64,000 nucleotides of DNA. It comes from Candidatus Poribacteria bacterium. GTDB taxonomy: Bacteria > Poribacteria > WGA-4E > WGA-3G. The translations under genes were made by a program, and so were the position numbers. The stretch is from positions 32,001-96,000 of the forward strand of contig OZ219750.1 of NCBI GenBank assembly GCA_964291315.2. Reading direction: 5' to 3'. The notes under the pieces were generated by a model that did no database searches, was not told the DNA's origin, and saw only the letters and a program-made list of their open reading frames with translations. Shown here piece by piece: positions 19,672 to 42,900 of this stretch. Every line of letters starts with the position of its first letter. Positions within the stretch are counted from its first letter, which is position 1.

Positions 19672-20493
19672 TCAGATAGGGTCTGTCTCTGGCTGTGCCG
19701 CGGTGTAACATTCGGTAAGGTTCTCATCGGAGAGTGTTTCGACACCTCTGTGGGTAACGGTTTTGATAGTTGGGAAAATTTGTGCGCGTGCGTTGTACCC
19801 GCTAGTTGCTGCGTCATATTCGCTTGCGGTATCCAAGAGTCGTAAGATAGTGATTGTTGCTTGGCGCTCATCCATTTCTTGCAGCGGGGTTTCGCCGAAC
19901 CGTGATAGGTAGCGTAGGACCCCTCGAATCCAGATAGAACCAGAGCCTGTTGTGGCGAAATTGACGTTTTCAAAGTGTGCCCCGAGTGCGTCATAGAAGA
20001 AAATCTTGCCGCGGTTCTGTGCCTCAGGGGCATCTTGGAGGTAGAAGGCAAAGATCGGAATGACTCCTCCGATTCCTTGGAGTGCCATCGCCAGGTTATC
20101 ACGGATAAGCCGAGAAAGCATTCGGAGTTTGCCTTCGAGACTCAACTCTTGGAGCTGACTACGGCGGAAGTATTGAAACGAATGTTCAAGGATTCTAGCA
20201 ATCTCATAGGCAATGGCTGGTGATCCAGAAATAGCAAGCACGGAATACTTATCAATCTCTAATACTTTCTCGGCGCGATCATAGATAACAGCGGTACCAG
20301 CAGTGGCACGCCGATCGCCAGCAATCATGACCCCATCTCGGTAACGGAGGGCGACGACGGTAGTGCTATGCGCGATCTCTATATCCGCCTGATGCTGTGT
20401 TTCAGGAGTCAAACCTATCTGCAGCGGATAGTTTGCGTGTTGCAAGAGACTCAGAAAGTCTCCTTTATGGTTTATTGCGTTTTTAATTGGCAT
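19672..20493 (-). CDS. prcB: 20S proteasome beta subunit
   Basis: Propeptide followed by HS|TTVVAL, AGDRRATAG and TGSGS. Confidence 0.93.
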   Translation of the reverse strand: MPIKNAINHKGDFLSLLQHANYPLQIGLTPETQHQADIEIAHSTTVVALRYRDGVMIAGDRRATAGTAVIYDRAEKVLEIDKYSVLAISGSPAIAYEIARILEHSFQYFRRSQLQELSLEGKLRMLSRLIRDNLAMALQGIGGVIPIFAFYLQDAPEAQNRGKIFFYDALGAHFENVNFATTGSGSIWIRGVLRYLSRFGETPLQEMDERQATITILRLLDTASEYDAATSGYNARAQIFPTIKTVTHRGVETLSDENLTECYTAAQPETDPI

Positions 20494-20559
20494 CTTGATA
20501 TTAGCGAGGCTGAGAGGGTGGAAGGGAAAAATAGAGATAGACCTTCCACGCCTCGAATT

Positions 20560-20751
20560 TTATTCACCGGTTCTTTGCCGGTAGCGCCGAGATTGATCTT
20601 TGTCAACCCTTCGCATGCGTTTGAGTAGTTCTTGGGTATCGGGTCTGCTGATTTTCTGGCGTTTCGGTCCGTCACTGTCACCATCGTCTGGACCGATTGG
20701 CTTTGTCTCTTTCTGCTTGCGTTCAAGCTGGGAAATCAGTTTAGGGTCCAC
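20560..20751 (-). CDS. ubact: UBact, prokaryotic ubiquitin-like modifier
   Basis: 63-aa low-complexity protein ending LLKRMRRVD...RYRQRTGE, the R[TS]G[EQ] signature; lies between dop and prcB with an AGGAG RBS. Confidence 0.92.
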   Translation of the reverse strand: MDPKLISQLERKQKETKPIGPDDGDSDGPKRQKISRPDTQELLKRMRRVDKDQSRRYRQRTGE

Positions 20752-20909
20752 TTTACATCTCCTTTTTAGTAGTTGGACTTATGCACTAAAAGCCCGGTAG
20801 GTGTAATTTATACCTGGGGTTTTCCGCGGTTGGAAGGTGCCCCGGTCCTGCAGGGATAAATACCTGCCTCATAGCAAAATTTGCATATTGACACAATTTT
20901 GCGTAAGTT

Positions 20910-22430: not shown

Positions 22431-22566
22431 TTGGCTATAAGCAGTCGGTGGCCAGGGGGCAGTAGTGGTTTGTGGTGGTGACGTGTATTGCGTGTTTGCC
22501 ACAAACCACTTTTAACTGATAGTTGAAGAGCGAGGGCGGCTATTTTCTGGCGACCGATAATTCCTT

Positions 22567-24396
22567 CTAAATGACTCGTGATCCGGAGGTTCTGCGTTTC
22601 TCCTGTTTTTGAGTGTTGATAGGTGTAACCTTGACGACATTTGCGGGGTCGTAATCAAGGAGTTTGAGCCAATTTTCTGTAGCTTCTGTTGGTGGGAAGA
22701 TTTCACTTTCACTGTACTCGGCGGCAAGAGCGTCTAGCAGGTCTGCGCGTGAAATACCGTTCTCTTTCTCGGGGTTCTGAATTGCCCGTTTGAGTGCGGA
22801 TTCCTTGGCTCGTTGTACAATAGACTCGATAATTGCGCCGCTACAGAGATGCCCACGATAGAGGGTATCCCGTCTGCCGCTTCGGAGTGCGACTTCGAGG
22901 AATCGGTTTTCCTCGCTCTCACGGAACATTTCATCGACCACTTGTGCGATTAAGTCCTCGACTGCTTTTTCTGCGGGAATCAGGTCAGGTGCTGCGTCCG
23001 CTGGTTGTGCCTCATCTATAGGTTCGACGTGTTGATTAAGGCGGTCTTCTGAGGCAATCGGTAGTTCAGGTGTGAGGTAGATACGGAAAATGTCTTTCGC
23101 GGCGTTGACATCCGGGCGAGTCACTTTGATTTTTCTGTCGATACGTCCTGGGCGCAGTATAGCAGGATCAATTAAATCTGGTCGGTTTGTGGCGAGGATA
23201 ATAACGACATCTTGTAAAGATTCAATTCCATCCATTTCTGCGCAGAACATTGGAACGAGGGTATTAGAGATGCTATGGGATCTGAGGGCGCGTCGCGTGC
23301 CTAGAATAGATTCTGCTTCATCTATAAAGACGAACGCCAATTTTCCGTCTTCCTTTTTCTCGCGTGCGATCTGAAAAATCTCACGTACCTTGCGTTCGGA
23401 CTCGCCGAGCCACATGTTCAGGATTTCAGGTCCTTTGATGTGGAGAAAACAGCCTTGAATATCTTCGTTGCTTTCTTTGCGGAGTCGCTGTGTCAAATTA
23501 TAGGCAGTTGCCTTGCCGATGAGCGTTTTTCCACATCCTGGAGGTCCGTGTAGTAGGAATCCTTTTGGGGCACTGTATTGGAACCTTTCGAAAAGTTCAG
23601 GGTGCAGGATTGGGAGTTCGATTGTGTCCTTAATTTTTTGAATTGTTTCGTCTAGTCCGCCTACCTTTGACCAAGGTATATCAGGGACAGCCTCAAGTGC
23701 ATAAACATCTGTTTCTTTGGCAGCGAGATGTTCGAGGGCAACCCGGAAGTTGGGGTCAATGCGTACCTCGTCGCCGGGTTTAAGTTTAACATCGGTGAGG
23801 TCTGTGGAGCGTTGCAGGATAACAGATTGTGAGTTGAATTCTTGACCTGTGCGGAGGCGGCCGTCGGGCATGATGTCTATTATTTCTGTGATAGGACCGG
23901 CCTCGTTGTATCCGAGGTCTCCGACGACAACATATGCCTCGTTTAGCAGGACGCTGGATCCTTTTTTGAGGTTTTTCGGGTCTAGTTGTGTATCGAGATT
24001 GGCGTAGTATTCGGAGCCGCCGACGATGACACGGGCGATGTCCTCTTTAGGCAATCCGAGGAGCGTACCGATCCTGTTAGCAGGTGAGGTGAGTTTTTTG
24101 ATATGTGCCTCCATTTCGTCATGGATACGGAGTGCTTCTTCTTGAATTGCCTGAATTCTTTCCCGAAATTCCTCTTCATCATTGATGATAGAACGTCGAA
24201 GTTCAAGCAGCCAGCGGCGACGGGGGTCATCGACCGGGGTTTCTACGATAATGTGATGGATGAGCTGCAACGAATAACCGGAACTTGTTTCATCGTCTTC
24301 GGTGATGATTTCTTCCTCGATGTCGTCATGTTCACTAAACATATCGCGCGTGTCGGGGCTGTTGTCAGCAACTTTACGATTCTTCTTATCGTACAT
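22567..24396 (-). CDS. arc: Proteasome-associated AAA ATPase ARC/Mpa
   Basis: N-terminal coiled coil, OB domains, GPPGCGKT, FIDEAES, DPAILRPGRID. Confidence 0.93.
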   Translation of the reverse strand: MYDKKNRKVADNSPDTRDMFSEHDDIEEEIITEDDETSSGYSLQLIHHIIVETPVDDPRRRWLLELRRSIINDEEEFRERIQAIQEEALRIHDEMEAHIKKLTSPANRIGTLLGLPKEDIARVIVGGSEYYANLDTQLDPKNLKKGSSVLLNEAYVVVGDLGYNEAGPITEIIDIMPDGRLRTGQEFNSQSVILQRSTDLTDVKLKPGDEVRIDPNFRVALEHLAAKETDVYALEAVPDIPWSKVGGLDETIQKIKDTIELPILHPELFERFQYSAPKGFLLHGPPGCGKTLIGKATAYNLTQRLRKESNEDIQGCFLHIKGPEILNMWLGESERKVREIFQIAREKKEDGKLAFVFIDEAESILGTRRALRSHSISNTLVPMFCAEMDGIESLQDVVIILATNRPDLIDPAILRPGRIDRKIKVTRPDVNAAKDIFRIYLTPELPIASEDRLNQHVEPIDEAQPADAAPDLIPAEKAVEDLIAQVVDEMFRESEENRFLEVALRSGRRDTLYRGHLCSGAIIESIVQRAKESALKRAIQNPEKENGISRADLLDALAAEYSESEIFPPTEATENWLKLLDYDPANVVKVTPINTQKQEKRRTSGSRVI

Positions 24397-24754: not shown

Positions 24755-25069
24755 TTAATTTTTTCTGGTTTTAAAAGAGTGTAAAAGGGTTTGTCTCTCC
24801 TCCCAATCCGGGAGGTATGCTGACATGAAGCTTTTGAAGAGTTTGCCGTGGTTTGGAACGAGGAGATGGACTAATTCATGAACAATGACGAATTCTGTCA
24901 ACGCTTTCGGTAGGTTAAGCAGCTCGGTGTTGAGCGTCAAGCGTCTATTGATTGATATAGATGCCCACTTTCTCCGCATCTGCCGGAGATGGATCTGCTG
25001 TACCTTCACATTGATGCGTTCTGCCCAGTAACACACCATGTCTCTTAATTCTGATCTGTGAGCGTTCAT
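24755..25069 (-). CDS. Short M48/DUF45 (YgjP-like) metallopeptidase associated with Type I R-M
   Basis: RKWAS and HELVH...PNH motifs; its ATG overlaps the hsdR TGA (ATGA). Confidence 0.85.
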   Translation of the reverse strand: MNAHRSELRDMVCYWAERINVKVQQIHLRQMRRKWASISINRRLTLNTELLNLPKALTEFVIVHELVHLLVPNHGKLFKSFMSAYLPDWEERQTLLHSFKTRKN

Positions 25070-27966
25070 ACGCGTTCTAACTTGAGCAATGTGTTTGTGG
25101 TTTCGATTAGGTTTTCCTTGCCGACTGTGGGTATGAGCGTGCGGTAGAGTGTGCCTCGCAATTCTTTTTCTTCGTGTGCATCCCACTGATAGTTTGGATA
25201 TTGTGTAAAGACTTGGTCAACAGCGCGTGCCTGTTCAGGCGTAATATCTTCTATTGCATTCTTGAGAACGGTATAAACGGCGTAGGTGTTTTCATCTAAG
25301 TCCATTTGTTTGCTTTCCCTAGCAGCTTGTGCGTACTCTTCGGCTAACCTTTTGAATTCAGCCAAGACATCTTGTGTGGTGAGTTGTCGGTTTTCATAAG
25401 CTTCTGTGACGGCTTCTGCGCGGTCGCCAATCGAGATCAGGAATGGCTTATGTTTGCCTTCATTTGCGACTGTTTGTTGCAATGCCTTCCGTAAGTTCTG
25501 AACTTTAACGGTATCGGATGTATTACTTTGCTCCATCTGCTGTAAGGTATCGTTGTGCAATTCGTAGACGGCATCGGGCAATTCAAATAGATGACTCTCC
25601 GTATGTGTTTGTAAGAGTTCCCGCGTTTTGGCGGTTAGTTCCTTATCAACATAAATACGTTCAGAATAAGCGTTACGGATGAGCCCGTAGAGGGTTGCAA
25701 GTGCCTGATAGTCTTTGATAAATGGGTGCAAGAAGGGATTAGGTGATAGGATGTCATAGAGATTCTGCATCGTTTTGAAAAATTTGAAAAAGGTTTCGCG
25801 TTTGTCTTTGTCATCGAAATGCTCAATTGCTTGCTCTTTTGCTTTATCATCCCACCCGGTAGTAAGAGGTAGGTATTCGACTGCATCCTCACAGATTCGC
25901 TTTGCGAAATCGGCTTTGAGTACGTCAATATTGCGAATTACACTTGTCACTTCATCGGAATCGAAGGCGAGAGCCTTCTCAAGGTTCTCGAAGATGCCGA
26001 CGAAGTCTAAGACGAAGCCTGCGGACTTTACCAAGCCTTCCGCGTCTTCATAAGGTCGGTTGACGCGTGCGATTGCCTGTAACAAAACGTGGTCGCGCAT
26101 CGGTTTATCGAGGTACATACAGTAGAGGATTGGTGCGTCAAAGCCGGTCAGCAATTTCTGGGTTACGATAAGGATTTTAGGGTTTTCGTTTTTGTTGATG
26201 AATTTTTTGCGGGTCTCTTTTTCTTCGTCTGCGGCGCGGTGATGTGTTTTTAGCTCCTCAGGGTCTTGATGATTCGGGGAATATACGACTTCCGAATATT
26301 CAGGGGGTATGTAGTTATCGAGTGCCTGCTTATACAAGACACACGCTTCTCGGTCTACAGCCACGAGGAACGCTTTGAAACCCATCGGTTCTACATTCTC
26401 GCGGAAATGTGTTGCGACGGCAGCAGCGATGCCGTTTATCCTGTCGGGGGCTTTTAGTATCGCCTTTAGCTGAACTGCTCGATCGAGGATTGCGTTGAGT
26501 TCTTCAAGGTTGCTCATCCCCTCGGCGATGGCGAGGTTTAGAAATTCGCGTTCTAATGTGTCCCGGTCGACGCGTAGGGCAGATGGTGCAAGGGCATAAT
26601 TGAGCGGTACGGTCGTGCCGTCTTCAATGGATTCGGTGATGGCGTATTTGTCGAGATAGCCTTGATCGTCATCCGTGCCGAAAACCTTGAATGTCCCCTC
26701 GCCTTTGGAGAGTTTGTCAATCGGTGTGCCGGTGAAACCGATATAGGTTGCGTTCGGTAGGGCTGCCATGAGATAGTTTCCGAAATCCCCGCCGGTGGTG
26801 CGGTGTGCTTCGTCGATGAGAATGACGACACTTTGGCGAGTGTTAAGGTTCGCTGGTCTTTTGTCGAACTTATGGATCATTGATACGATGAGGCCTCGGT
26901 AGTCGGAGACTAAGATCTGTTCAAGGGCCTCTTTGCTCTGTGCGATTTCAACTGTTGTAATGCCGTAGCCGGTGATGTTTTTAAAGAGTTGGCTCTCCAA
27001 TTCATTTCGATCGACGATCATCAGGACGGTGGGTTTTTCTGTCTGCTGTCCACTTCGTAGGAGACGGGAGGCGATGGTTATCATCGTGAGGGTTTTACCA
27101 CTGCCCTGTGTGTGCCAGACGAGTCCGCGCCGTTTATTGGGGTTATGTACTCGTTCAATGACTTTTTCGACTGCCCGGGTCTGGTGTTGCCGCAACACAA
27201 CTTTGTTGAGTTGGTCGTCTCTGTTCTGGAAGATGATTAAATGCTGTAACACTTTGAGGAAGCGTTCGCGGTCAAAGAAGGTTTTGACTTTCTGTTCGTA
27301 GCTATTTTGTAATCCGAGAATTCCGGTTGTGGAAGGAGCTTCGCCGGCTTTCCACTTAAACAAGCTTTTGCGGCTGGTATTCCACGTCACACTATAGAAA
27401 AAATCGAGCAGTTGTGTGACACCAAAGATTTGTGCGGTGGTGAACATTTCTGGGGTTTCACTGTGATAGCGGCGGATCTGCTCAACGCCGAGTGCTACGC
27501 CGTCCGGTCTGTTGGTGTTCTTCGTCTCAATAACTGCTACGGGGATTCCGTTAATGAGAAAGACGACATCGGCGCGGTTGCGGTGGACGGTGCCTTGTTG
27601 TTTCCATTCATCGGTTACATGGAATAGGTTTTTGTCCGGGGTATCGAAGTCAATTAGGGTAACGTTGCGATTGCGGTTCTGATTTTGAACGAAGGTTGAC
27701 TGTTCGCCGCGGAGCCATGAGAGTGCATCTCGGTTTCCTTCGAGGGTTGGTTTGAGGGTGCGCAGTTGCCGTATAACATTTGCACACTCGGCTTCGCTCA
27801 GGATGTTTTTGTTAAGTTTGATAAGTTGTGCTTGCAGGATATCGGTAAAATAGCGTTCGGTTTCTCCGCGGCGCATACGCTTGGCTGCTGGTTGAGAAAT
27901 AGACTGCCAGCCGATGTCATCAGCATATTTTAGCAAAGGTTTCTGCACTGCGGAACGTTCAGACAT
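25066..27966 (-). CDS. hsdR: Type I restriction enzyme R subunit
   Basis: Nuclease motif ADVV...IETK, QGSGKT, DEAH, FTGTP, TGFDAP, QAIARVNR. Confidence 0.96.
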   Translation of the reverse strand: MSERSAVQKPLLKYADDIGWQSISQPAAKRMRRGETERYFTDILQAQLIKLNKNILSEAECANVIRQLRTLKPTLEGNRDALSWLRGEQSTFVQNQNRNRNVTLIDFDTPDKNLFHVTDEWKQQGTVHRNRADVVFLINGIPVAVIETKNTNRPDGVALGVEQIRRYHSETPEMFTTAQIFGVTQLLDFFYSVTWNTSRKSLFKWKAGEAPSTTGILGLQNSYEQKVKTFFDRERFLKVLQHLIIFQNRDDQLNKVVLRQHQTRAVEKVIERVHNPNKRRGLVWHTQGSGKTLTMITIASRLLRSGQQTEKPTVLMIVDRNELESQLFKNITGYGITTVEIAQSKEALEQILVSDYRGLIVSMIHKFDKRPANLNTRQSVVILIDEAHRTTGGDFGNYLMAALPNATYIGFTGTPIDKLSKGEGTFKVFGTDDDQGYLDKYAITESIEDGTTVPLNYALAPSALRVDRDTLEREFLNLAIAEGMSNLEELNAILDRAVQLKAILKAPDRINGIAAAVATHFRENVEPMGFKAFLVAVDREACVLYKQALDNYIPPEYSEVVYSPNHQDPEELKTHHRAADEEKETRKKFINKNENPKILIVTQKLLTGFDAPILYCMYLDKPMRDHVLLQAIARVNRPYEDAEGLVKSAGFVLDFVGIFENLEKALAFDSDEVTSVIRNIDVLKADFAKRICEDAVEYLPLTTGWDDKAKEQAIEHFDDKDKRETFFKFFKTMQNLYDILSPNPFLHPFIKDYQALATLYGLIRNAYSERIYVDKELTAKTRELLQTHTESHLFELPDAVYELHNDTLQQMEQSNTSDTVKVQNLRKALQQTVANEGKHKPFLISIGDRAEAVTEAYENRQLTTQDVLAEFKRLAEEYAQAARESKQMDLDENTYAVYTVLKNAIEDITPEQARAVDQVFTQYPNYQWDAHEEKELRGTLYRTLIPTVGKENLIETTNTLLKLERV

Positions 27967-28006: not shown

Positions 28007-28585
28007 TTAGTTAGGGAATGTTACGCGTGTGTAGATATCCTGCAAAGCCAATTTGCATTTGATCGCGTTGAGCATCAGAACATCTTCAGGCGTGTGAAAT
28101 GTTTTTGCCGCCCACTGTGCCTCAACAAGCCGAAAATGTTCAACGTGAATCCTGTCTTGTGAAACGAGAATATATTCTTGCAAGGACGCGAGTTCTTGAT
28201 AATATAGGAATTTCTCGCCTCTGTCATAAGCTTCGGTTGAGGGTGAAAGTACTTCTACGATTAGGATAGGATTGAGGAGCGTATCAAAAACATTGTCCTC
28301 AAAATGAGGTTTACCGCAAATAACTGCGACATCTGGATAGAAGTAAGAACCTGTGGAACTTGTGCGGACGCGCATATCGGCACTGTAGATTTCACAACCG
28401 TATTTTCTTAATTGGAGATTAAGTGCTGTGGTTATATCCACTGTGATAAGATTATGGGCTCGACTTGCGTCGGACATTGCGAATAGTTCTCCGTGGCTGT
28501 ACTCGCTTTTATGTATAGCGCGACGTTCCGAGGCGAGGTATGCCTCAGGGGTAATGTAGGTATCGGTTGCTGTGACAGATGGCAT
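28007..28585 (-). CDS. Uma2 family PD-(D/E)XK endonuclease
   Basis: EYSHGELFAM, YPDV and VEVLSPST motifs. Confidence 0.9.
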   Translation of the reverse strand: MPSVTATDTYITPEAYLASERRAIHKSEYSHGELFAMSDASRAHNLITVDITTALNLQLRKYGCEIYSADMRVRTSSTGSYFYPDVAVICGKPHFEDNVFDTLLNPILIVEVLSPSTEAYDRGEKFLYYQELASLQEYILVSQDRIHVEHFRLVEAQWAAKTFHTPEDVLMLNAIKCKLALQDIYTRVTFPN

Positions 28586-28698: not shown

Positions 28699-29937
28699 TT
28701 AATTTAGTTTGGGCTCTAAAGCATCAATGAGTGGGACAGCGGAGCGTTGTCCTGTCATTAATTCGTCAAGCATGGCGTGAAAGAGCTCATCGAGGTATTG
28801 TGTTTCTTGTTCGAGGGCTGCTATTTTTTTGTCAATTGCCCGGAACACATCGGTAATGGCGCGCTGTTCACGGAGTGGCGGAAGGGGAAAAGTGAATTTT
28901 CTCAAAGAGTTCCAGGTCGTTCTTGGATGATTTACTCCTCCTGTGGTTGCTATCGCGTAACGAATGAGGGATTGGGTATGGAGAAGATAGACTAAAAATA
29001 TCGGAATTGTTTTTGAGTTTGCGGTGACCACAAGAATATCGGTAGAACAAATTCCCTCCATTTCAGCAAGGATAGCCTTATCTAAATATGGTCGTAATTT
29101 TCCATACAGAACGTCATTGGGATAAAAATAATGTTTTGCACTTTTTACAAATGAGGCTTTTCCCCAACGTTGCAGTAAGCTTAAACCTGAGTCAATATGC
29201 TCAAGTCCGACATAATTAGAATTAGGACTATCTTTTGGATTGATATGTTTACGTCTTAAATCAGCTATTTCTTTCAGTTGGATTACTTCCCAGCTCTCAG
29301 GAATTTTGCCAATTTCCGTTTCTTTACGAGGTTCGTTCTTCGTGCCGTGTGAGAAGAGGTAATCTATCAGTGCAGCTTTGCGTTCGCGTTCTAATGTGAT
29401 TTCGCGTTGTCGGGTAATCTTTGCTTGTTGGATCGTTTGTAGGACGTGGGCGATGGCGCGTTGTTCGGGGAGTGGGGGTAGGGGCACTGCCATATTTTTT
29501 ACATTGGTCGCAGTAATCGCGGGTAGGGCGCCTGGGTTTGAAAGATCGGCTAAATCAATAAATTCAAACCAATACAGCAAATAATAAGGAATACATGATT
29601 TGTGATCCTGAATCGTTACTCCCATGACATTATTATCTACCAAACTGCTACAAGATAGTATACGTTTCTTATTGGTATAAATGGCCCCGCCTACTTTTGG
29701 AAAAATTACTGTATCTTTTGGAAATAATTTTGCTTTAAGTATTTTAACCGTATCTTCGTCTACGTAGTTATTCGATGTGTGCATTACAGTTTCGTTACCT
29801 GTTAGGTTCATGTCTGAAACTTTGTAAAACGGATATTTTCCTATTGTATTGCCTTGATGCACTTTCGGGAATGCTGATCCCGCACGAACGTTAGCAATCT
29901 TCTTTAATGAAATGAGCTTTCCATGTTCACACATCAC
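28699..29937 (-). CDS. hsdS: Type I R-M specificity subunit
   Basis: Two TRDs, each followed by PLPPLxEQRAI; central IGKIPESW. Confidence 0.93.
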   Translation of the reverse strand: MMCEHGKLISLKKIANVRAGSAFPKVHQGNTIGKYPFYKVSDMNLTGNETVMHTSNNYVDEDTVKILKAKLFPKDTVIFPKVGGAIYTNKKRILSCSSLVDNNVMGVTIQDHKSCIPYYLLYWFEFIDLADLSNPGALPAITATNVKNMAVPLPPLPEQRAIAHVLQTIQQAKITRQREITLERERKAALIDYLFSHGTKNEPRKETEIGKIPESWEVIQLKEIADLRRKHINPKDSPNSNYVGLEHIDSGLSLLQRWGKASFVKSAKHYFYPNDVLYGKLRPYLDKAILAEMEGICSTDILVVTANSKTIPIFLVYLLHTQSLIRYAIATTGGVNHPRTTWNSLRKFTFPLPPLREQRAITDVFRAIDKKIAALEQETQYLDELFHAMLDELMTGQRSAVPLIDALEPKLN

Positions 29938-30297: not shown

Positions 30298-30654
30298 TTA
30301 AAGCGGAATGTAAATAATTTGATCAATATATTCATCTTCGTCAGATGCTCCAGCGATGAGGATCAGCTGTTCGATGATCAATCTGATTGATACTTTGCGA
30401 TTAATTGTGAAAATGCCAGGAACATGATGTCCGGCTGCCAGATGGTCAGAGAGGTGTTTAGGCATACTTTTTCGATTGTTTGTTATTAAGATAAATTGGT
30501 TCTGTTCACACCACTCTAAGATTTTTGGATCTGAGGTGCCTTTCACAGGAGCTCTTTCCTCTCCGATCATCAAGACCGTTAAAGATGGTTCAAAGTCCAG
30601 CAATTGCGTGCGATAAATTCTAGGCAAATTTTCATCTATCAGATACCGACGCAT
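30298..30654 (-). CDS. DUF5615 PIN-like (VapC45-like) toxin
   Basis: YLIDENL, GTSDPKIL, LITNNRK and HVPGI motifs. Confidence 0.85.
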   Translation of the reverse strand: MRRYLIDENLPRIYRTQLLDFEPSLTVLMIGEERAPVKGTSDPKILEWCEQNQFILITNNRKSMPKHLSDHLAAGHHVPGIFTINRKVSIRLIIEQLILIAGASDEDEYIDQIIYIPL

Positions 30655-30788
30655 CTTTATCCTTGTCTGTTTTTGGATAGAGGTTGCTGGGCTGCCCGTT
30701 TTTGGCGGATCTGGTGTGAATTATTAGAAGCATCTTTCCTTTCTGCTATAAGTTCATGCAGGCGAGCAGCCCTAGAAGGCGTTTTTTT

Positions 30789-33700
30789 CTACCCCGCCTG
30801 TTCCGTTGGGCGATATTTTAGATAATCATCCAAATATGCTCCAACTTCTTCTTGATTTTGAAGATAATATAGGATCGTTGCGTAAACTTGTTCTAGTGTG
30901 AGTGTATAGTAGTGATCAGCGATGACCACTGGAGTTTTACTAGCGTGAATGTACTCGCAGAGGATAGTTTCAATACCTACCCGTGTTCCTTTAAGACGAA
31001 TATCATCTTCTGCCAAAAATTCAAAATTATTTTCAAGGGGGCAGATCTGTCGAAAATCCTGGATCCGTTTGAGAATACTGTTTTTAGTCGGTAAAAAAAG
31101 TATGTACCTATTTTGAATTCGGGACTCAAGTTGCTTCAATATCGTGTGTGTATTCCGTCCAAATGTAAGTCCGGTTAATAATCCTAACGTCAAGAATTCT
31201 TTTTGCCTGAAAAGGGCTGACGTGTCCCAAAGTTTAAAGAGAAAATCAGCTGTAACGTCTAATGCCGAATTTAAATTCATTCGTTCTGCTCCTAAGGCAA
31301 GCATAAAGCTGTTGTAAGGTTCGAGGAGTGTCCAGTTTGCTCGTTTTGCAATTTCCAATAGTAGGTCAGCATCGAACGCTGTATGATAGTAGCGAGAACA
31401 GACCAACTTTATGGTCATCTCATCGTAGTCAACTTTATCTAGGAGTTTTTGCTTAACGCAATGTTCCAGTAAAACTTGTGTCCACACACCGTCAATTTGA
31501 AAGTTGGTTGCTGTCTCCTTATTGAAATTTGTTTTTGCATAATGTCTGAGGTGTCCATCGTCCGAAAAAAGTAAGTGCCCTGGCTGGCTTGCAAGAAGGA
31601 TAGTGTCAAGGAAATGTTGTTGTAGCCTAGAATTGAGTTCTCTCCTGCGTAATTGGTTTATCTCTAAACCGACAGTGGCTTGCCCAATTTCACAGTTCTT
31701 TCTAATCCAATCAGTAATTTTTTTTAGATATTCTATTCCGTGTTTCGTTTCCTCAGGGTTGATAATTTGTTTTACATACCGATTTCCTTTTTTCCCAACT
31801 ATCATTCCCTCGCGCTTAGACCACATTCCCTCTCTTTCACTGATGATACGCTGTAATTCATCAATAGTCGATTGGGCAATGCAGAGCTTTCCAAAGGTGT
31901 CGACCACAATATTTGCTGCATCCAAACAGTGTAAAGTAATTAAGGAAATAATATCTACAACAAGTTTAAGGTTGTGTTGATTAAGTAGGCTAAGGGCATT
32001 ATTTCTTTCCTCAGTATTCCCTATGCTACACCTAATCCCTAATTTTGGGTTAGCCATCAGTGAACTCCATGTATCTAAACTATTACCACCGGCTAAGTTT
32101 GTAAAGAAACCGATTGTAAGGTATTTGTCCTGATATAGTTCTTCAATTTGGCGTATGATCTCGTATTGCTGATCAACCTTGTCTAACATTGGTCGAAATC
32201 TTTCTTTGTCATCGATTTCTGAAGAATCGTCTAGTTTAACTGTTTCCATACCTTCGTCCGTTGGGAACAGATGTTCGTATTTACGCAAACTCTCTTGATA
32301 GGCATAAGAGAATTTACTTTTGATACCAAGGATTTCTACAGTCTTTTTCCCTATTCTTACTACGACATTCTTCTGTTTTTTGAGTAATTTTTGAACGAGA
32401 GGGTCCTTCATATCGCGTTCATTACGTGTGATATCTGCATCATCACGTTCTTCAATGATATACCAGTCTTGATCGGAGATGTTGATTTGGACAGCTGTGT
32501 CTTTTTCTACTTGAGTAGGGTTTAGTATCTCACGGATTTCCTTTTCGACCGAATGGAAAACGGAGATATATTTAAGATGGGCATCAGGTTCATTGTAACG
32601 CATTCTACGCACTTCATACATGATTTTGAGTGCTTTTTGCGGTTTACTCTTTTGATGTAATAAGGCTAATTGGAAGGATCCTTCTAAAGGAAGCTCCTTA
32701 AGGAACGAAAAATTCTTGGAATCAGGGAGACTTTCCAACACATTATCAACTTCAGCCATTTTATTAGAACGAAAAAGGACCATTCCGAGGCGGATTTGCA
32801 TATCATAATCGGTTGGGAATTTGTTTAGATACTCTTTACATACCGTTTCGGCTTGTTTCATATCGCCAATTTCTTCATAAATCACGACTTCCATTACGGA
32901 AACGTTTTCAAGTGGTCCATATTTCTCGCGAAGTTTCTGACATATCCTAAGGGCTTTCGCAATTTCGCCGGAATTATAATAACTTTGCACTAACCATTGT
33001 GTCAATTGGGAGTTCTGATTTGTGTCGGCAATTTTTTCGTAGAGCGTTGCGGCTTCTTTAAATTGTTCGTGAATAAAAAGTTCTGCAGCTAATTCCACTA
33101 TTTCTAAGAAATCCTTGCTGTCTAACGTATAATTATATGCTTCTATAAGATGGGAAATAGCTTCGTCATTTTTCTTCTTCTTACTAGAAATTAAGGCAGC
33201 ATTAATAAGATTTAATACGCTTGTTGGAGAAGATTTTAGCATGGGGGTTAGTATTAGTTCGGCCTCTTTAATGCGTTCTGCGGCAATATGAACACGAACG
33301 AGCCAGCATTTTGCCTTGTCCTGTAATTCAGAAGAGGGGTTCGTCTTTAATAATGCATCAAGCTTTGTTATTGCTTCATCATAGCGTTTATCTGCGAAAA
33401 GAATATTGGCAACCAGTATCTGAGCCTCATAGATTTCTGGTTGGGATTGAATCTTTTCCAGAAAATCAATTGCCCTTTTTCGATCGCCTTGCTCAAATGC
33501 CAACAATGATCTATTTCTTAATAGCATAGAGTGGGCAGGTTCAATTTCTATAGCTGTGTCAAGGTCTTTAATTGCTGCTTCCGTCCTACCAAGAAGTTGT
33601 AATGCGGTACTCCTATTAATGATCCAGTCTGCCCGAGCAGTCCGTAACTCAGTGTCAGCGACACAATCCCATGCTGCCGATAGAAGTTCAACCGCTCGGT

Positions 33701-35036
33701 CTAATTGTTCCTCTTGCGAAGCGTCAATCTGCTGAGTGCACATATTAACATGATCCGCTAGTACCTGTTCAATCAAGATTGTAGCTAAGGAGGCTTTAAA
33801 AACGGGGGGATCTCCTTTTTCTACCGTGGTTTTCCCCCATTTTTTCGCCTCTTCAAAATTCCTACGTTGTTTTGCTAGGTTGCTGATGGCGGAGGCAATT
33901 TGTGGGCTATCTCGTAGATAGTCAGGCACTTTAGCAATTACTTCTGCAAGTGGTTCTTTCTCGGCAGAAATTCCCACAAGAATAGCGTAGGCATGTGTAT
34001 TTGCAGGATTTTTTTCTAGTGTCTGTTTTGCGTATTTTTCTGCATTTTCGGGATCTCCAAGTAATAGATGTGCCAAAGCCCGATTAGAAAGTGCACTTTC
34101 GTCCTCAGGATTATATTGAAATGCCTTAAGTAGCAATTTTGCTGATTCTTGTTCGTTATTAAGAGCGAGCTGAGCTGCTGCCATATTTGTTAAAATGCTA
34201 AACTTAAGACCCTCCGAAGCTCTTGCTCCGATACGTTTGTTTAGAATTTTTAATAATTCAAAAGCAGTCGTAGGTTTATGACTCTTAATTAATTCTTGTG
34301 CATTGCCTATTTCTGTTTGGTGTTCTTTTGCAACTTCGATTTCTACTAAATTGGAGATATTTACATCGAATTGAGATTTAACTTTGCTGACTAGATCTAA
34401 AGTGGCTTGTGTCTTTTGCTTAATCTCAACAGTATCATCCTTAATTTTTTCGGTGTCGCTTTTGATGGCTTGGATGTCTTGAGTTAAACGTTCATTAACT
34501 TCTAACTGCACTTGTTCAATTTTTTGCCAAAAGTCCTTTAGTCTGGAATTTAGGTTTGCTTGCTCAGTCGTCGTGTCTTGAATAAGCTCAAGTACAACTT
34601 GATTAAATGCTTCTTGTTTAAGCGAAAGTTGTTTATAAAAGTCAATAATTGCTCTTTCAATAATAGGGCGAATTCTTCGTTCAAAATCTGTTTTCGTTAA
34701 TGAATGATTAGGGACGATAAGACAATAGTGAAAGAGCGTTGTGATTTTCGCTATTTTTTCACTTTCATTTAATTGTGTGAATTGAACTTCATCAACATCC
34801 TTAAGTGAAGCAATAATTTTGTCAAGCTCGGCAGTATCTACATCAACCTTTTTTGGATCTGTCAGATCTGCGAAGTCAGATGCGTGTTGGTTCACTGCTT
34901 CAACAAAAGACTTTTTGAAAAGCTTTTCTGCCGTAGTTTTGTGGGAACGTTTGAGAGCAAAATTAATACCATCAACGATAGAAAATCCGGTCCCTATGAT
35001 ATTGTAAACCGAGAATGCTAAATTGAGTATTTCCAT
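30789..35036 (-). CDS. 1415-aa protein: helical NTD-coiled coil-TPR array-GreA/B-C-like-PIN, fused to C-terminal DUF433
   Basis: Many TPRs; VEKDTAV...DPLVQKLL...VEILGIKSKF; PIN acidic motifs LVVD, IDE, FLD and SDD; last ~82 aa FLAEDDIRLKGTRVGIETIL...LEQVYATILYY match DUF433. Confidence 0.8.
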   Translation of the reverse strand: MEILNLAFSVYNIIGTGFSIVDGINFALKRSHKTTAEKLFKKSFVEAVNQHASDFADLTDPKKVDVDTAELDKIIASLKDVDEVQFTQLNESEKIAKITTLFHYCLIVPNHSLTKTDFERRIRPIIERAIIDFYKQLSLKQEAFNQVVLELIQDTTTEQANLNSRLKDFWQKIEQVQLEVNERLTQDIQAIKSDTEKIKDDTVEIKQKTQATLDLVSKVKSQFDVNISNLVEIEVAKEHQTEIGNAQELIKSHKPTTAFELLKILNKRIGARASEGLKFSILTNMAAAQLALNNEQESAKLLLKAFQYNPEDESALSNRALAHLLLGDPENAEKYAKQTLEKNPANTHAYAILVGISAEKEPLAEVIAKVPDYLRDSPQIASAISNLAKQRRNFEEAKKWGKTTVEKGDPPVFKASLATILIEQVLADHVNMCTQQIDASQEEQLDRAVELLSAAWDCVADTELRTARADWIINRSTALQLLGRTEAAIKDLDTAIEIEPAHSMLLRNRSLLAFEQGDRKRAIDFLEKIQSQPEIYEAQILVANILFADKRYDEAITKLDALLKTNPSSELQDKAKCWLVRVHIAAERIKEAELILTPMLKSSPTSVLNLINAALISSKKKKNDEAISHLIEAYNYTLDSKDFLEIVELAAELFIHEQFKEAATLYEKIADTNQNSQLTQWLVQSYYNSGEIAKALRICQKLREKYGPLENVSVMEVVIYEEIGDMKQAETVCKEYLNKFPTDYDMQIRLGMVLFRSNKMAEVDNVLESLPDSKNFSFLKELPLEGSFQLALLHQKSKPQKALKIMYEVRRMRYNEPDAHLKYISVFHSVEKEIREILNPTQVEKDTAVQINISDQDWYIIEERDDADITRNERDMKDPLVQKLLKKQKNVVVRIGKKTVEILGIKSKFSYAYQESLRKYEHLFPTDEGMETVKLDDSSEIDDKERFRPMLDKVDQQYEIIRQIEELYQDKYLTIGFFTNLAGGNSLDTWSSLMANPKLGIRCSIGNTEERNNALSLLNQHNLKLVVDIISLITLHCLDAANIVVDTFGKLCIAQSTIDELQRIISEREGMWSKREGMIVGKKGNRYVKQIINPEETKHGIEYLKKITDWIRKNCEIGQATVGLEINQLRRRELNSRLQQHFLDTILLASQPGHLLFSDDGHLRHYAKTNFNKETATNFQIDGVWTQVLLEHCVKQKLLDKVDYDEMTIKLVCSRYYHTAFDADLLLEIAKRANWTLLEPYNSFMLALGAERMNLNSALDVTADFLFKLWDTSALFRQKEFLTLGLLTGLTFGRNTHTILKQLESRIQNRYILFLPTKNSILKRIQDFRQICPLENNFEFLAEDDIRLKGTRVGIETILCEYIHASKTPVVIADHYYTLTLEQVYATILYYLQNQEEVGAYLDDYLKYRPTEQAG

Positions 35037-35098
35037 CGATCTTCATCTCCTATCAGGGTTCTGTTTGATGTATGTTCACCCAATGATGTGCTTTTGTT

Positions 35099-35127
35099 AT
35101 TATAGTATATTTACGCGATTAGGTCAA
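35099..35127 (-). promoter_or_regulatory. Near-consensus sigma70 promoter for the TPR-PIN cassette
   Basis: TTGACC-17-TATAAT, with AGGAG RBS downstream. Confidence 0.75.
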
Positions 35128-35212: not shown

Positions 35213-36835
35213 CTAGAGTCCGAGTTGTGTTAATATTTCTTCTAAAGTTTTATCTGCCTGTTTACGGGCGTTGCGTGCTTCTGTTAAGTCTGCCAGAATT
35301 TCATTCACGGGTCGGTGTTCTATCTTGTCGCCTACATCTACGGATTGTGAAGGACTCAGGTTGTAATCATTTTTTTTTGCATCTTCTAGTGTGATAATGT
35401 TGCTCAACTTTTCGCGGATTTCCCACGCTTGGTAGACTTCTGTTGCAACGTTGATACCATCATCGGTCAGGATATTTTTCGGGTCGCCTTTCACAAAATG
35501 TTTGGAGAGGTTGATGAGCAGGATCTGGTTTTGGCGTTCCGGGGGTTTGCTGTGTTTCAGGAGCAAGACAATGCCGGGTGCGCTGGTATTATAAAACAGG
35601 TTCTCGGGTAGGAGGATTACGGCTTCGATGAGGTCTTCCTCAACAAATTTTTTACGAAGGTCGCGCTCCCGATGGGTCTGTTGACTCCCGGATCCGCGGG
35701 AAACTGCCCCGGTATCTAAGACAATTGCGGCGTGCCCGTCTTCTTTGAGAGAGGCGTGGATATGTTGCACCCATGCCCAGTCTGCGGATGAAGTTGGGGC
35801 AGCTCCGTACGTGAAACGTTTATAGGGGTCATTTGTGTAAAAAGAATTGTCGTACCCATCTTGATTCCACATAGGATTGGCAACGACATAGTCAAAACGT
35901 TGTAGCGTTGCGTTGTTTGTGAGAAAATGTGGATTACGGAAGGTATCACCGATACGGAATTCTGCGCCGATGAAATCGTGCAGGAAGGCGTTCATCTTTG
36001 CCATGGCGTAGGTTGTTGGTGTGAGCTCTTGCCCATAGATTTGTGGTGCCTGTCCTTTTTTATCGGGGTGATTCTGCTCAAAGAGGAGGCGTGGTTTGAT
36101 GAGCAAGCCTCCTGAGCCGCATGCTGGGTCATAGATAGTAGTGTACGGTTTGGGATTAAGGATGCGGGCCATGAGCCATCCGACCTCTTTAGGTGTATAG
36201 AATTCGCCTGCGCTCTGTCCTTGTCCTTCAGCGAATTTTCGAAGTAGGTATTCATAGGCGCGTCCGAGAATATCAGGTTCTGTGTCTTGCAATCCGAGTC
36301 GGTGTTGACTTATGACCTCAATGAGTTTTTCGAGTCGGTCGTCGTCAAGGATGCGCTGCCCGCTTTGCCGTTCGTTGAAATCCTCTACATCAAGGACACC
36401 TTGGAGTCTTGGGTTGAAATGTGTGGCTTGCCGCATGGCATCTGTAACAAATTCGCCTAAGTGACCATCTGCGGGATGGTTTCGGAGTGCTTCCCAACGG
36501 TATTGCTGCGGAATGTAAAAACGGACGATGGGCGAACGGTTATTCTTTAGCGCGTCCTTGTGATCGGCTTTGATAATGTCGTGTGTGAGTGCTTCGTCTC
36601 CTAATTCTTCAACCTGTTTTGCGAATTCGTCATCGAAAACATCGGAGAGACGTTTATAGAAGATGAGCGGCAGAATGAAGTCCTTGAATTTCGGTGCATC
36701 GGTTGTGCCACGAATGACACAAGCAGCATCCCATAACCAGTTTTCGAGAGTGGATATATCCAAGTGTTCTTTGTTCTTAGGTAGGTGCGGGGATGGGGTT
36801 TGGCTTGTGTCTGGTATAGGGTTCTTTTTTGGCAA
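35213..36835 (-). CDS. hsdM: Type I R-M N6-adenine methyltransferase
   Basis: LWDAAC, GEFYTP, DPACGSGG, and catalytic-motif variant NPMW. Confidence 0.95.
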   Translation of the reverse strand: MPKKNPIPDTSQTPSPHLPKNKEHLDISTLENWLWDAACVIRGTTDAPKFKDFILPLIFYKRLSDVFDDEFAKQVEELGDEALTHDIIKADHKDALKNNRSPIVRFYIPQQYRWEALRNHPADGHLGEFVTDAMRQATHFNPRLQGVLDVEDFNERQSGQRILDDDRLEKLIEVISQHRLGLQDTEPDILGRAYEYLLRKFAEGQGQSAGEFYTPKEVGWLMARILNPKPYTTIYDPACGSGGLLIKPRLLFEQNHPDKKGQAPQIYGQELTPTTYAMAKMNAFLHDFIGAEFRIGDTFRNPHFLTNNATLQRFDYVVANPMWNQDGYDNSFYTNDPYKRFTYGAAPTSSADWAWVQHIHASLKEDGHAAIVLDTGAVSRGSGSQQTHRERDLRKKFVEEDLIEAVILLPENLFYNTSAPGIVLLLKHSKPPERQNQILLINLSKHFVKGDPKNILTDDGINVATEVYQAWEIREKLSNIITLEDAKKNDYNLSPSQSVDVGDKIEHRPVNEILADLTEARNARKQADKTLEEILTQLGL

Positions 36836-39967: not shown

Positions 39968-42900
39968 CTATTTGATCACAGCGATTTTCCCGACCTTTTT
40001 TAGCGTATCAAATTCCAGGACGTAGATATAGATGCCGCTTGAGACATCTGCGGTACTGTTGCTTGTGAGCCACCATTCTTTCCGGTTGTAATCCTGTTCG
40101 GTTACATTCAATGTCTCAAGCAATACCCCGTTGGTATCGAAGAGTTGGATACGGGTACCGATGGGCAGTTTGTCGAAAGTAATTGCGCCTTTGTCAACAG
40201 TGTTCGGGCGCACTGGATTTGGATAGACCCGTGCCTGTTTGAGATCAGAGACTGTGTCTGTAACAGTAAAAGGTATTTCAAGGGGGCGCGTGGCGGCACG
40301 GATAGGGTTATCATCAAGATCGGTTACATTAGAAACGGTAATCTCATACGCGTCTGTTTTAGCGGTCAAGGGTTGCCTGAAGTGTGTCAGGAATTTGCGT
40401 GCGTCAAACGTTAATAAGGCTCGTGTGCCCTCTCGATCGCGGATGGCGGACACCGGGGTTACACCGTCAATCCGCTTTGCGACGCGGAGGACATAACGGT
40501 TTTCGTTGCCGATTCCAAAGTTCATTGGTCGATCAAATGTAAGCATCACCCAGATATTTTCCTGTAGGGGGTCAGCGTGAATGTCAACTTGAGGTTCGGC
40601 TTGTAGGGTCGGTATCTTTTCTCCCGGGGAGAGATAAAGGGCCCGAATTAACTGCGGTGGTTTCCGCGGTGTTGCAGAAACAGGAGCAGTGTGCTGCGTT
40701 TCAGTATCGGCATCGAGCTGTGCAGTGAGCGTGTACCAGTAGGTATTGTCTTTTGTTACACGCCGATCAATGAACCGTGGGGTAGTGAGGTTTTCGGCGA
40801 TTTTCTGAAATTCGCTATAAGGCGGTGCTTTTTCCTTTCTACCTTGTGCGCGATAGACAGTGAAACGGAGGGATGTCTCAAGCTGCTCTGGGCTGTTTGT
40901 GTCGTCTAGCTGAGCGTTCCATGTAACCTGTACTGCCTTTTCTGTTAAAGGTCGGGCTTCAATGTGCCAGGGCTTGATCACATCAAGCGAATCAGGCTGT
41001 GTTGCAAAGATAGATTCACATCGATAAATTCCATTTTCAAGGTTAACATAGAATTCGTTAAAGCCGTTCTGATTGAGTTCAGCTGTTAGAAGTGCTGGGG
41101 TCTGTTCTATCCTTCGGTGCCAGACGGGCAGCAACATTGTGCCGTTCCATCTCATAACATAGAGGTTCGGATATGTTGCAACGATGAGTTCATTATCGCC
41201 GTCTTGATTGAAATCTGCGATTGTGAGGCTATTTCCACTCCGGTGGTGCAGTGCGACAGCGGCAGCGGCATCTCGTGTCTCGTCTGATAGTGCTGCGTAT
41301 CCGTTTGGTGTGTGCGTAAAAACAAAAAACTTCCAGAGAAGTGGGCCGGATGAAGAGCGTGTGTGTAGTGCGAGGCTCCCGCCGATCACGAACTCAGGTT
41401 TGCCATCTCCAGTGAGATCCCCTGAAGCGAATTGCGTGATGTTTTTGAGTGGGAGCTGTGTTTGCCATTCCATGCGGAAGGTGTTGCGGGTAGAGGTAGA
41501 CTCATAAAGGAATATCTCGCCTTCGCTGTCGCCTGTTACTAGTTCTGTGCGTCCATCGGCATCGAAATCGGCAATAGCAAAGGTTTTAGCAAAGACATTA
41601 GCGCCGCGGGTTTCGTTAAGTAGTGCAGCTTTCTCGACGTGGGTATTTGTGGTTGGATCGTATTCAAAAACGAGGAGTCGGTCGTTGTTGTTGTCTGCGC
41701 CGATAATTTCTTTTTGTCCATCACGATCTAAGTCTCCAATCGTAGCGCAGGAGAGAAAAGGTGATTCCCAGATAATCTGATTTGGATATCCGCGTGGTGC
41801 TGTGCTCTCGATGAGAAAGGTCCGCTCATCGTCGGTAGCAAGGACTTCGAGGAGGGCATCACCGTCTGTGTCATCTACGGTCCATGTGATGAACTTTTCC
41901 AAATTAGAGAGGCCATCTAGACTTTCAAAAGCGTGTGCCAATTCATATTTACCGGTGGGGAGTTGTTCGTAGATTGCAAAGATAGCAGCTTGTAATTCTG
42001 TGTGGGGTTCTGTTTCTGAGTTGAGGGGGCTGCCAATGATTTCCAATAGACCGTCAGCATCAAAGTCGGATGTGACACTTGCGATGCGGAGTGGTGGTAT
42101 GTCCAGCGGTATCACAGCGAACCCGTTCGGTGAGATATATCCCCCGGTGACATCAATATTGTAAAAGTCCCCGTTGTTGTCCGCTTTTCCTTTGAGGTTT
42201 GTCGTGTTGACAGCCTCAACGAAAAATTGGTAAGTTCCGGTTTCCAAGCCTAAAGCGAGGAAGTGTTCTACTCCGAGGTCAGTAATCGGAACAGATGCAA
42301 AGGGTGCGCCGGTTCCTTTACGTTTGTAATAGAGGGTATTCTGTGTAACGTCATCCGTTGCCCAAGTGAGTACCGTCAGTCCGCGGTTACCGTAGAGCGT
42401 TTGGGTTGCCGTGAGTGAGCTAATATGTGGCGGAGTGCGGTCTACACTCAGCACAACTTGGTCGTGTGTTTTTTGTCCGTCTGTAGCTGTTGTTGTTAGA
42501 CGGAGGGTGTAGATACCTTCTGGGACGGTTGTAGTATCCCATACGGTCAGGGTCTCACGGATTTTCTGTGTCGTGGAGTCTTGGGTGAAAGGCGTAAATT
42601 TAGTTGGCAGAGTGGATTGCCCGTAACTGAGCTGCCATGAATGGAATTTGTAACCTCCTGCTGTGCCGATGACGGTGATAGAATCTGCACCGCCGCTATT
42701 AGTTTCGGGAGCGAAAATGCGTGCTTGCAATGCGCTGCTGGCGAGGAGCGCGCGGCCGGCGCTGATATTTCCCGCACCGACGAATTTTTCATCCAATTGA
42801 GTGCTATTTGCTCGGTAGATTGGGTGAGCGGTGTTAATGAGTATTTGCCGGACTTCCTCCTGCGTTAGCCCGGGTCGTTTCGCGAGCATTAGTGCTGCAA

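Follow-up and report, generated by a model that had tools for sequence, protein, structure and literature searches.

A TGP protein fused to a VapB-type antitoxin, beside a DUF5615 toxin gene, in a Type I restriction-modification operon of Candidatus Poribacteria

Candidatus Poribacteria are sponge symbionts. We describe here a two-gene cassette from one of them, found in a stretch of 64,000 nucleotides (contig OZ219750.1, positions 32,001 to 96,000; this whole stretch is called the window below) and placed between hsdM and hsdS of a Type I restriction-modification (R-M) operon. The first gene, P0001, encodes a protein of the TPR-GreAB-C-PIN (TGP) type that runs on in frame into a DUF433 domain, the antitoxin of a VapB-type toxin-antitoxin (TA) pair, and the second, P0002, encodes a small DUF5615 protein, the toxin type of such pairs. 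We show here the architecture of this fusion, its conservation and single origin, its coupling to the toxin gene, its linkage to R-M genes and the purifying selection that acts on it. In the reading that we favour, with confidence and doubt about evenly balanced, the sensor part would hold the toxin through the fused antitoxin and free it on infection, which would make the cassette a sensor-tethered TA toxin for abortive infection.

Architecture, origin and spread of the fusion

P0001 is composed, in order, of a helical N-terminal domain, a coiled coil, a TPR array, a GreA/B-C-like domain, a PIN domain, a helical domain and DUF433 (Table 1). An initial annotation, made from the letters and their open reading frames (ORFs) alone, had proposed this architecture, and searches by domain with Pfam, AlphaFold2 (AF2) and Foldseek confirm it, with all of its coordinates holding to within a few codons (31540-31970 against 31533-31961 for the PIN domain, and 32310-32510, equal to aa 842-909, for GreA/B-C). 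The PIN-TPR-GreABC family PF20698 matches P0001 with an E-value of 1e-24 and 87.8 bits, against a cut-off of 27.8, and several TPR families exceed their own cut-offs N-terminal to the PIN; a PIN of the PF20698 type is present as a single copy in the window's genome. By sequence, the GreA/B-C part gives a weak NCBIfam GreA match (aa 810-905, E 0.033). In the AF2 model of aa 790-1415 (pLDDT 85.4), a beta domain (aa 847-907) is followed by a low-confidence linker, a helical segment and the alpha/beta PIN domain, and these in turn by a helical domain (aa 1186-1337), another low-confidence linker and the DUF433 helices. The top matches of this model to the PDB in Foldseek were GreA (1grj, prob 1.00, E 0.06) and 2pn0 (prob 0.99), and the PIN protein 1v8p was also matched (prob 0.99, E 0.3). 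The acidic residues of the TGP PIN, first noted as retained, are indeed kept in 51 to 57 of 57 aligned relatives: D1160 in all 57 and D1028 in 56, while D1159 is Asp in 55 and Glu in two, D1144 Asp in 54 and Glu in two, and D1059 Asp in 51 and Glu in five.

The fused DUF433 (PF04255, aa 1347-1391) scored 22.6 bits in the whole-protein Pfam scan, slightly below the cut-off of 23.6, and 28 bits, above the cut-off, in a six-frame genome search. It is 64-76% identical to stand-alone antitoxins, of which the single one scanned (L080) reaches 34.5 bits. As had been read from the ORF at the outset, the domain lies in frame with the 1334-aa upstream part and lacks an ATG of its own. The gene was also correctly described as AT-rich (GC 0.388 over 30298-35127, against 0.472 for the whole window), and the near-consensus promoter proposed for it is present as TTGACC-17-TATAAT, 11 of 12 positions agreeing, about 60 nt upstream of the fusion's ATG and inside the 176-nt spacer between hsdM and the TGP gene; this site is promoter-like by consensus match only, which is no sign of function.

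The N-terminal domain (aa 1-255) is conserved in the alignment of relatives. An AF2 model with a pLDDT of 69 shows a long coiled coil (aa 159-251), preceded by a helical globule (aa 36-138) and, at the very N-terminus, by helices that are hydrophobic and Gly-rich. Pfam holds no family for it, and Foldseek found no PDB structure at E<=0.001; the VIA wide search returned only generic coiled-coil matches (Z<=7.3), Atlas scores were 0.76, and a search of the PDB by sequence gave no more than a chance-level match. A resemblance of its hydrophobic, Gly-rich first ~30 residues to the N-terminal helix of Bell/HeLo pore formers is at most a conjecture, prompted by the Bab/Agp preprint.

Judged from the alignments, the fusion is a clean end-to-start joining of two complete genes, one for a TGP protein and one for a VapB-type antitoxin, because the unfused TGP proteins of Poribacteria end where DUF433 begins in the fusion, at about aa 1330, and the stand-alone antitoxins of the same phylum (127-132 aa) align with the fused part from about their third residue to the end of the tail. 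Downstream of each of these stand-alone antitoxins, 2 nt from its stop, begins a gene for a toxin that shares 63-80% identity with P0002, and such pairs bear out the early assignment of DUF433 and DUF5615 to one TA pair.

In a tree of the TGP part, 19 fused rows are separated from 10 unfused and split rows with an SH-aLRT support of 100, and the window is the earliest branch of the clade of relatives that are 71-79% identical to it (support 83). In a tree of antitoxin and toxin together, a branch with a support of 86 has the 26 fused rows together on one side, the internally deleted forms described below falling inside the 71-79% clade and the 534-aa forms inside a second clade of 56-57% identity. 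Both trees are quick ones, the antitoxin-toxin alignment is short and the kin are not independent of each other; within these bounds, the trees fit a single fusion event. Two loci, L056 and L057, are the only ones in which a separate antitoxin gene stands beside a TGP gene. There TGP, DUF433 and DUF5615 form three genes, with a real stop, a spacer of about 60 nt and the antitoxin's own ATG. Since both the TGP part and the TA part of these loci branch outside the fused clade, the juxtaposition of TGP and TA genes arose at least twice.

In a protein search, 324 long proteins matched aa 1000-1415 at E<=1e-3, and the 120 best of these are 75-81% identical over 98-100% of that range, most of them 1448-1475 aa long. 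When matches in 176 Candidatus Poribacteria genomes were sorted into forms by open-frame length and query range, the fusion was found in about 47 of the genomes, the window's own counted and all forms taken together. Full-length fused genes account for 33 rows in 29 other genomes: 26 rows from 25 genomes (1411-1484 aa) are 71-79% identical over aa 1001-1415, and seven rows (1444-1456 aa) are 56-57% identical. Three rows (534-535 aa) are truncated at the N-terminus and hold only the PIN, the helical domain and DUF433. In 15 rows, aa 1-209 are joined to aa 1221-1408 by an internal deletion (469-481 aa in 13 rows, 315 and 340 aa in two), and in one further row (599 aa) the internally deleted protein and the toxin share one frame. 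Among the 120 proteins listed for the internally deleted form in the protein collection, most are 455-482 aa long. The search for further proteins carrying both PIN-TPR-GreABC and DUF433, which had been proposed at the start, thereby rules out that the fusion is unique, and a misassembly was rejected as its source on the same finding in dozens of Poribacteria genomes and on the presence of the locus in contigs of several runs.

The internally deleted loci deserve a description of their own. The derivative of about 477 aa in L058-L063 (e.g. L058:3836-5266) consists of aa 1-209 of the N-domain, a short pre-PIN piece, the helical domain and DUF433. The TPR array, the Gre-like domain and the PIN are all missing from this derivative, and the toxin gene has been retained beside it; its ratios of nonsynonymous to synonymous substitution (dN/dS), 0.28-0.43, indicate purifying selection. 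In a single genome, at L069:5302-7095, N-domain, antitoxin and toxin are read as one frame of 597 aa. Because internally deleted forms exist, the antitoxin-toxin part can be said to persist without the sensor.

Seen against the whole family, in contrast, the fusion is narrow. In a library of representatives at 50% identity, only 4 of the 150 best matches reach DUF433; the other full-length relatives among those 150, 28-53% identical, end at about aa 1330, their own C-terminus. Because most relatives stop there, the fusion forms one narrow clade of a large family. A distant TGP protein of 1508 aa, P0186, has an N-terminal PNP_UDP_1 domain and a C-terminal Ada zinc-binding domain, and additions to the C-terminus of the TGP core therefore occur elsewhere.

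The fusion is under purifying selection in all of its domains. Pairwise dN/dS (Nei-Gojobori, own script) lies between 0.16 and 0.43 in every region of every form, with 0.16-0.28 for the fused DUF433, and 0.16-0.18 for the PIN; the N-domain gives 0.32 in internally deleted and 0.33 in full-length forms.

The toxin gene and the predicted complex

P0002 matches DUF5615 (PF18480) with 31 bits, against a cut-off of 23.8. A DUF5615 gene follows the fusion in 27 of 29 loci of relatives; of the two others, one lies at a contig end and one is truly without the gene. Of 17 loci, 14 have 2 nt between the stop of the fusion and the ATG of the toxin gene, as stand-alone pairs do, and the other three have 8 nt. 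Across 34 toxins, D7, E8, D42 and T58 are invariant and D70 is kept in 31. Position 60, which we take to be the third acidic position of the usual PIN/DUF5615 motif, holds Asn in 30 of the 34 and Asp in four.

That DUF433 and DUF5615 bind each other, for which a complex model had been suggested as a check, is supported by such a model. Window DUF433 (aa 1326-1415) and P0002, run with our own alignments, gave an ipSAE of 0.80, whereas the best of three controls gave 0.00. Of 80 solved complexes, 58 attain the mark applied to this score, as do 2 of 110 mismatched pairs; these figures are only a rough guide here, since own alignments were used. The runs share at least 82% of their contacts, and the partner has a pLDDT of at least 90. 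In the model, antitoxin residues 1350-1354 contact D7, E8, N9, residues 38-40, D42 and N59/N60 of the toxin, and the invariant KGTR loop (aa 1349-1352) sits in the toxin's acidic pocket. A search of the PDB by sequence found nothing for the toxin and nothing for the C-terminal 245 aa of P0001, and the DUF433 profile matched only 2ga1 (E 0.088). Because no solved toxin relatives were found and the DUF433 match is weak, it seems unlikely that the score reflects memory of a known complex.

Taken together with the domains described above, these predictions suggest the following course of events. The cassette would be a two-gene defence unit inserted in a Type I R-M operon, its first gene a TGP phage sensor with a complete VapB-type (DUF433/COG2442) antitoxin as C-terminus and its second the cognate toxin, a PIN-like nuclease of the Mut7-C type. 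The antitoxin domain would keep the toxin on the sensor and block it through the KGTR loop in the acidic pocket. Once infection is sensed by the TPR/GreA/B-C part, the toxin might be freed by a change of conformation, an oligomerisation or proteolysis of the antitoxin moiety; it would then cleave RNA and bring the cell to arrest or death, as a second line behind restriction. Toxin release, an antiphage effect and sensing itself, for which the initial annotation had named a phage protein, RNA polymerase state or R-M inhibition as possible targets, are inferred here by analogy.

Linkage to restriction-modification genes and exchange of cassettes

The embedding of the cassette in an R-M operon, seen at first reading, holds for the window, where hsdM, hsdS and hsdR all lie around it (Table 1). 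The context of 18 full-length fused loci was compared over 20 kb each. In nine of them hsdM lies directly upstream (fragmented in L049, together with hsdR), in four an Eco57I-like gene of about 990-1035 aa takes this place (as a fragment in L051), one has only a short hsdS-like gene and hsdR fragments, and in four no R-M neighbour was found; R-M genes, Type I or Eco57I-like, adjoin 14 of the 18. Among internally deleted loci, hsdM is directly upstream in five of seven (L058-L062), while L063 has only hsdS, Uma2 and hsdR fragments downstream and L069 has hsdM about 2.3 kb upstream. No Hsd matches were found within the flanks of about 3-4 kb of unfused TGP genes. The 534-aa forms have the Eco57I-like gene as a neighbour too, and it likewise stands beside the split form L056 and beside six stand-alone TA pairs; because the split form and the stand-alone pairs share this neighbour, the R-M linkage predates the fusion.

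These six stand-alone pairs of the same lineage (L085, L086, L087, L089, L092 and L093) speak for the main rival of a sensor-tethered toxin, in which DUF433/DUF5615 is a selfish stabiliser of R-M-linked cassettes, serving addiction only, and the fusion merely welds the antidote to a TGP protein, with no signal passing from sensor to toxin. The deletion derivatives, which lose sensor parts and keep antitoxin and toxin, point the same way, as does the cassette in L049 that has outlived its decayed R-M locus; TA systems may, moreover, cluster with and stabilise defence islands, as discussed by Matelska et al. 2017 (PMC5499597). However, a stabiliser does not need covalent linkage, and the fused state has been kept through two diverged clades, with purifying selection on every domain and with an N-domain that is as constrained in the internally deleted forms as in the full-length ones. 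The second, independent juxtaposition of TGP and TA genes likewise argues against stabilisation as the only role, and we regard this explanation as unlikely, although it is the most serious of those that compete with the sensor-tethered toxin.

In L040, L043 and L047, copies of the hsdM 3' end flank the cassette as direct repeats; they are 164-183 nt long, share 84-88% identity and lie about 5.2-5.4 kb from each other. In L047 a third copy brackets a second cassette, which consists of a C5 methylase and a HATPase_c_3 protein, the copies being 70-88% identical overall. Because copies of the hsdM 3' end flank the cassette, these repeats suggest that cassettes are swapped by recombination at the end of the methylase gene. 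In the window itself, no hsdM 3' repeat flanks the cassette. Fragments of the 3' end of the Eco57I-like gene are repeated in L064 and L068.

A wider scheme would join these repeats to the sensor-tethered toxin: a TGP protein captured a type II antitoxin as a built-in adaptor, so that a VapC-like toxin became its releasable effector, and the cassette moves between R-M operons on copies of the methylase 3' end, as a guard that fires when restriction fails. We consider this scheme possible, though on balance doubtful.

An ORF of 1382-1489 aa lies between the toxin gene and hsdS in several loci (L043:12780-16925, L045:12668-17128, L046:12752-17188 and L048:12589-17055) and occurs in L062 and L069 too. 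It is 54-74% identical between loci, matches no Pfam family at E<=1e-5 and is absent from the window. A gene of the Uma2 family (putative restriction endonuclease) stands between hsdS and hsdR in the window and is present in L058 and L063 as well. Directly after the R-M operon, at 15817-24396, the window carries a Pup-proteasome cluster with two Pup-ligase family genes, two proteasome subunit genes, an ARC/Mpa-type AAA ATPase and a trypsin-TPR protein; the ATPase is syntenic in L049. Further away are a second R-M-type gene (48214-51429, 1071 aa) with a Type ISP coupler, an N6 methylase and Type_ISP_C specificity domains, and an S8 subtilase (39968-44104, 1378 aa) that contains FG-GAP repeats and weakly matches the Por_Secre_tail sorting domain.

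Table 1. Positions of the cassette, its parts and its neighbours in the window, and of the hsdM 3'-end copies in related loci
Feature	Position	Strand	Evidence or remark
TGP-DUF433 fusion gene, P0001, 1415 aa	30789..35036	(-)	ORF call, Pfam and AF2
N-terminal domain, aa 1-255	34272..35036	(-)	AF2 model; no Pfam family
TPR array, aa 286-763	32748..34181	(-)	Pfam TPR_19, TPR_2, TPR_16, TPR_14, ANAPC3 and others
GreA/B-C-like beta domain, aa 847-907	32316..32498	(-)	AF2, Foldseek and weak NCBIfam match
TGP-family PIN domain, aa 1026-1168	31533..31961	(-)	Pfam PF20698
C-terminal helical domain of TGP core, aa 1186-1334	31035..31481	(-)	unfused relatives stop here
Fused DUF433 (VapB-type antitoxin) core, aa 1335-1415	30792..31034	(-)	Pfam and alignment to stand-alone antitoxins
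Premature TAG in place of the Tyr codon (TAC or TAT) of relatives	30789..30791	(-)	alignment and contigs of sequencing runs
Antitoxin-tail remnant, 43 codons open in frame, TAA 2 nt before toxin ATG	30655..30788	(-)	now spacer
DUF5615 (Mut7-C-type PIN-like) toxin gene, P0002, 118 aa	30298..30654	(-)	PF18480
Promoter-like TTGACC-17-TATAAT	35099..35127	(-)	11/12 consensus match only
hsdM, Type I methylase	35213..36835	(-)	N6_Mtase with HsdM_N
hsdS, specificity subunit	28699..29937	(-)	Methylase_S
Uma2 gene, between hsdS and hsdR	28007..28585		
hsdR, restriction subunit	25066..27966	(-)	HSDR_N with SWI2_SNF2 and ResIII
YgjP-like gene, after hsdR	24755..25186		
hsdM 3'-end copies, L040	7231-7413, 12398-12580		
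hsdM 3'-end copies, L043	7192-7364, 12590-12762		
hsdM 3'-end copies, L047	7427-7590, 12597-12760, 16269-16432		

The premature stop, known systems and meaning

The window's copy has a feature that is new here: a premature TAG removes the conserved antitoxin tail of 43-50 aa. Relatives run 43-50 aa further, through a nearly invariant EEYEKNPPPG..RLR.L.AE, whose Tyr codon is the one replaced by TAG, and the distance from TAG to the toxin's ATG in the window is 134 nt, against 2 or 8 nt from stop to ATG in relatives, so that the 2-nt coupling is broken. A sequencing error was rejected as the source of the TAG, which is found in contigs of three runs of one study (X1-X3) and in a 151-nt piece of X4, from a second study. 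The strain in X3, about 2% diverged, keeps the TAG and has three frame-breaking indels, every one of them in the 134 nt that follow the TAG; the coding parts compared carry none. Because the TAG is shared and the X3 indels are confined to the tail, the stop is genuine, and the tail has ceased to be coding sequence in this lineage.

These observations favour in part an explanation in which the window's cassette is a decaying remnant, the nonsense codon marking the start of a loss of function after which nothing now works as a system: the TAG is real and common to the strains, the tail behind it, with its indels in X3, is the most diverged of the aligned tails, and the X3 toxin carries G102E. 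Against decay, the 1415 codons are open with no further stop, and the toxin gene is intact. In addition, the tail motif is missing through an in-frame deletion from L048 (and also from P0097 and P0099), and L048 has kept its toxin gene. Since the predicted interface lies wholly in the retained DUF433 core and L048 keeps its toxin, the truncation need not abolish neutralisation. Decay of the whole cassette is quite improbable in our view. In this local copy, its tail removed by a nonsense codon, regulation may be altered.

It is very improbable that the fused DUF433 instead serves the large protein itself, with the DUF5615 gene as a leftover. In such a role DUF433 might be a DNA-binding autoregulator of the cassette promoter, in the manner of VapB10 (COG2442), a transcriptional activator that binds the promoter of its own genes (PMC3834315). 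It might also inhibit the TGP PIN in cis, given that nucleases of the PIN-like kind are the partners of DUF433 domains and that P0001 itself contains a PIN. Against both roles, the DUF5615 gene is kept in all but two of 29 loci with TA-type spacing of 2 nt and invariant D7, E8 and D42, the complex model puts the DUF433 loop into the DUF5615 pocket, and the linker before DUF433 (pLDDT <50) leaves the domain without confident docking on the TGP core in AF2.

Several observations weigh against a sensor-tethered toxin. Sensor-less deletion forms, without TPR, Gre and PIN parts, are very common, and four of the 18 full-length loci have no R-M neighbour. In the syntenic L049, hsdM and hsdR are both in fragments while the cassette is intact. 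The window's own copy is without the conserved antitoxin tail, and X3, one of two sequenced strain variants, has its G102E at a nearly invariant position of the toxin. Catalytic competence of the toxin is unproven, with Asn at the presumed third acidic position, and the score of the complex expresses how confident the model is of itself, rather than anything measured. PADLOC gave no match to P0001 or P0002, neither being covered by its models. The proposed mechanism of sensing and release is in particular tempered by the common sensor-less forms, the decay in L049 and the window's lost antitoxin tail.

Each part of the cassette is already known. TGP systems were defined computationally and proposed to sense virus-hijacked RNA polymerase and to cleave its transcripts, with variable N-terminal effectors (Kaur, Iyer, Burroughs, Aravind 2021, eLife, PMC8195603). 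Like the systems described there, P0001 has a TPR array, GreA/B-C and a PF20698 PIN core behind a variable N-terminal domain, although its N-domain matches no named effector family in Pfam, Foldseek or VIA. That paper presents its systems as genes that mostly stand alone, rarely have conserved neighbours and vary at the N-terminus, whereas here the C-terminus carries a complete antitoxin, a toxin gene follows downstream and R-M genes are linked. DUF433, COG2442 and DUF5615 have no occurrence in the main text and eight supplementary files of PMC8195603.

Abortive infection against phage T5 by Bab/Agp, a system of E. coli ECOR25, requires the TGP protein Agp, and the defence is lost when the GreA/B-C of Agp is mutated (bioRxiv 10.1101/2024.11.07.622273). 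The likeness to the proposed working of our cassette lies in a TGP protein that has a small neighbouring killer protein under its control, with GreA/B-C required in Bab/Agp. By the account given in that preprint, however, Agp signals through an N-terminal amyloid motif to an adjacent pore-forming Bell-like protein; compared by architecture, the link in our cassette is instead a C-terminal antitoxin domain, and the partner a PIN-like nuclease.

VapBC10 of Synechocystis, a PIN-COG2442 system, functions as a TA pair, and ClpXP degrades its antitoxin (PMC3834315). As in VapBC10 and in the VapB45/PIN_10 pairs (PMC5499597), a DUF433 antitoxin here stands upstream of a small PIN-like toxin, with stop and start nearly abutting in the relatives, but the antitoxin is the last ~130 residues (81 in the window) of a sensor of about 1470 aa. 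Belliella baltica, too, has a DUF433-PIN_10 pair within an hsdM-hsdS-GmrSD operon (Matelska et al. 2017, PMC5499597). That pair is of the same TA type and likewise lies inside a Type I R-M operon, although the account of it in that paper reports neither a TGP protein nor a fusion. A direct interaction between TA and R-M is stated there as not yet shown.

The initial annotation knew of no description of such a fusion, and none was found in the literature searched, with bioRxiv supplements, including the extended data of Bab/Agp, outside its scope; within these limits, the fusion is undescribed.

The PrrC anticodon nuclease is a latent back-up nuclease inside the EcoprrI Type I R-M locus, and CapRel is a fused sensor-TA protein in which the antitoxin moiety doubles as part of the phage sensor. 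Both resemble the cassette in logic only.

The triggering of TA systems by phage is open for most families, and so is the way in which TGP systems execute defence; the fusion links both questions. As a Rosetta-stone link, it leads to the prediction of a direct physical path by which sensing would release the toxin. The natural series of separate genes, fusion and sensor-less deletion forms provides ready-made controls for such a path, and it points to an exchange of defence cassettes among these symbionts of sponges at the 3' ends of methylase genes of R-M systems. If the scheme of an antitoxin captured by a TGP protein is true, the cassette would be an example, caught in the act, of free TA pairs being wired into immune sensing.

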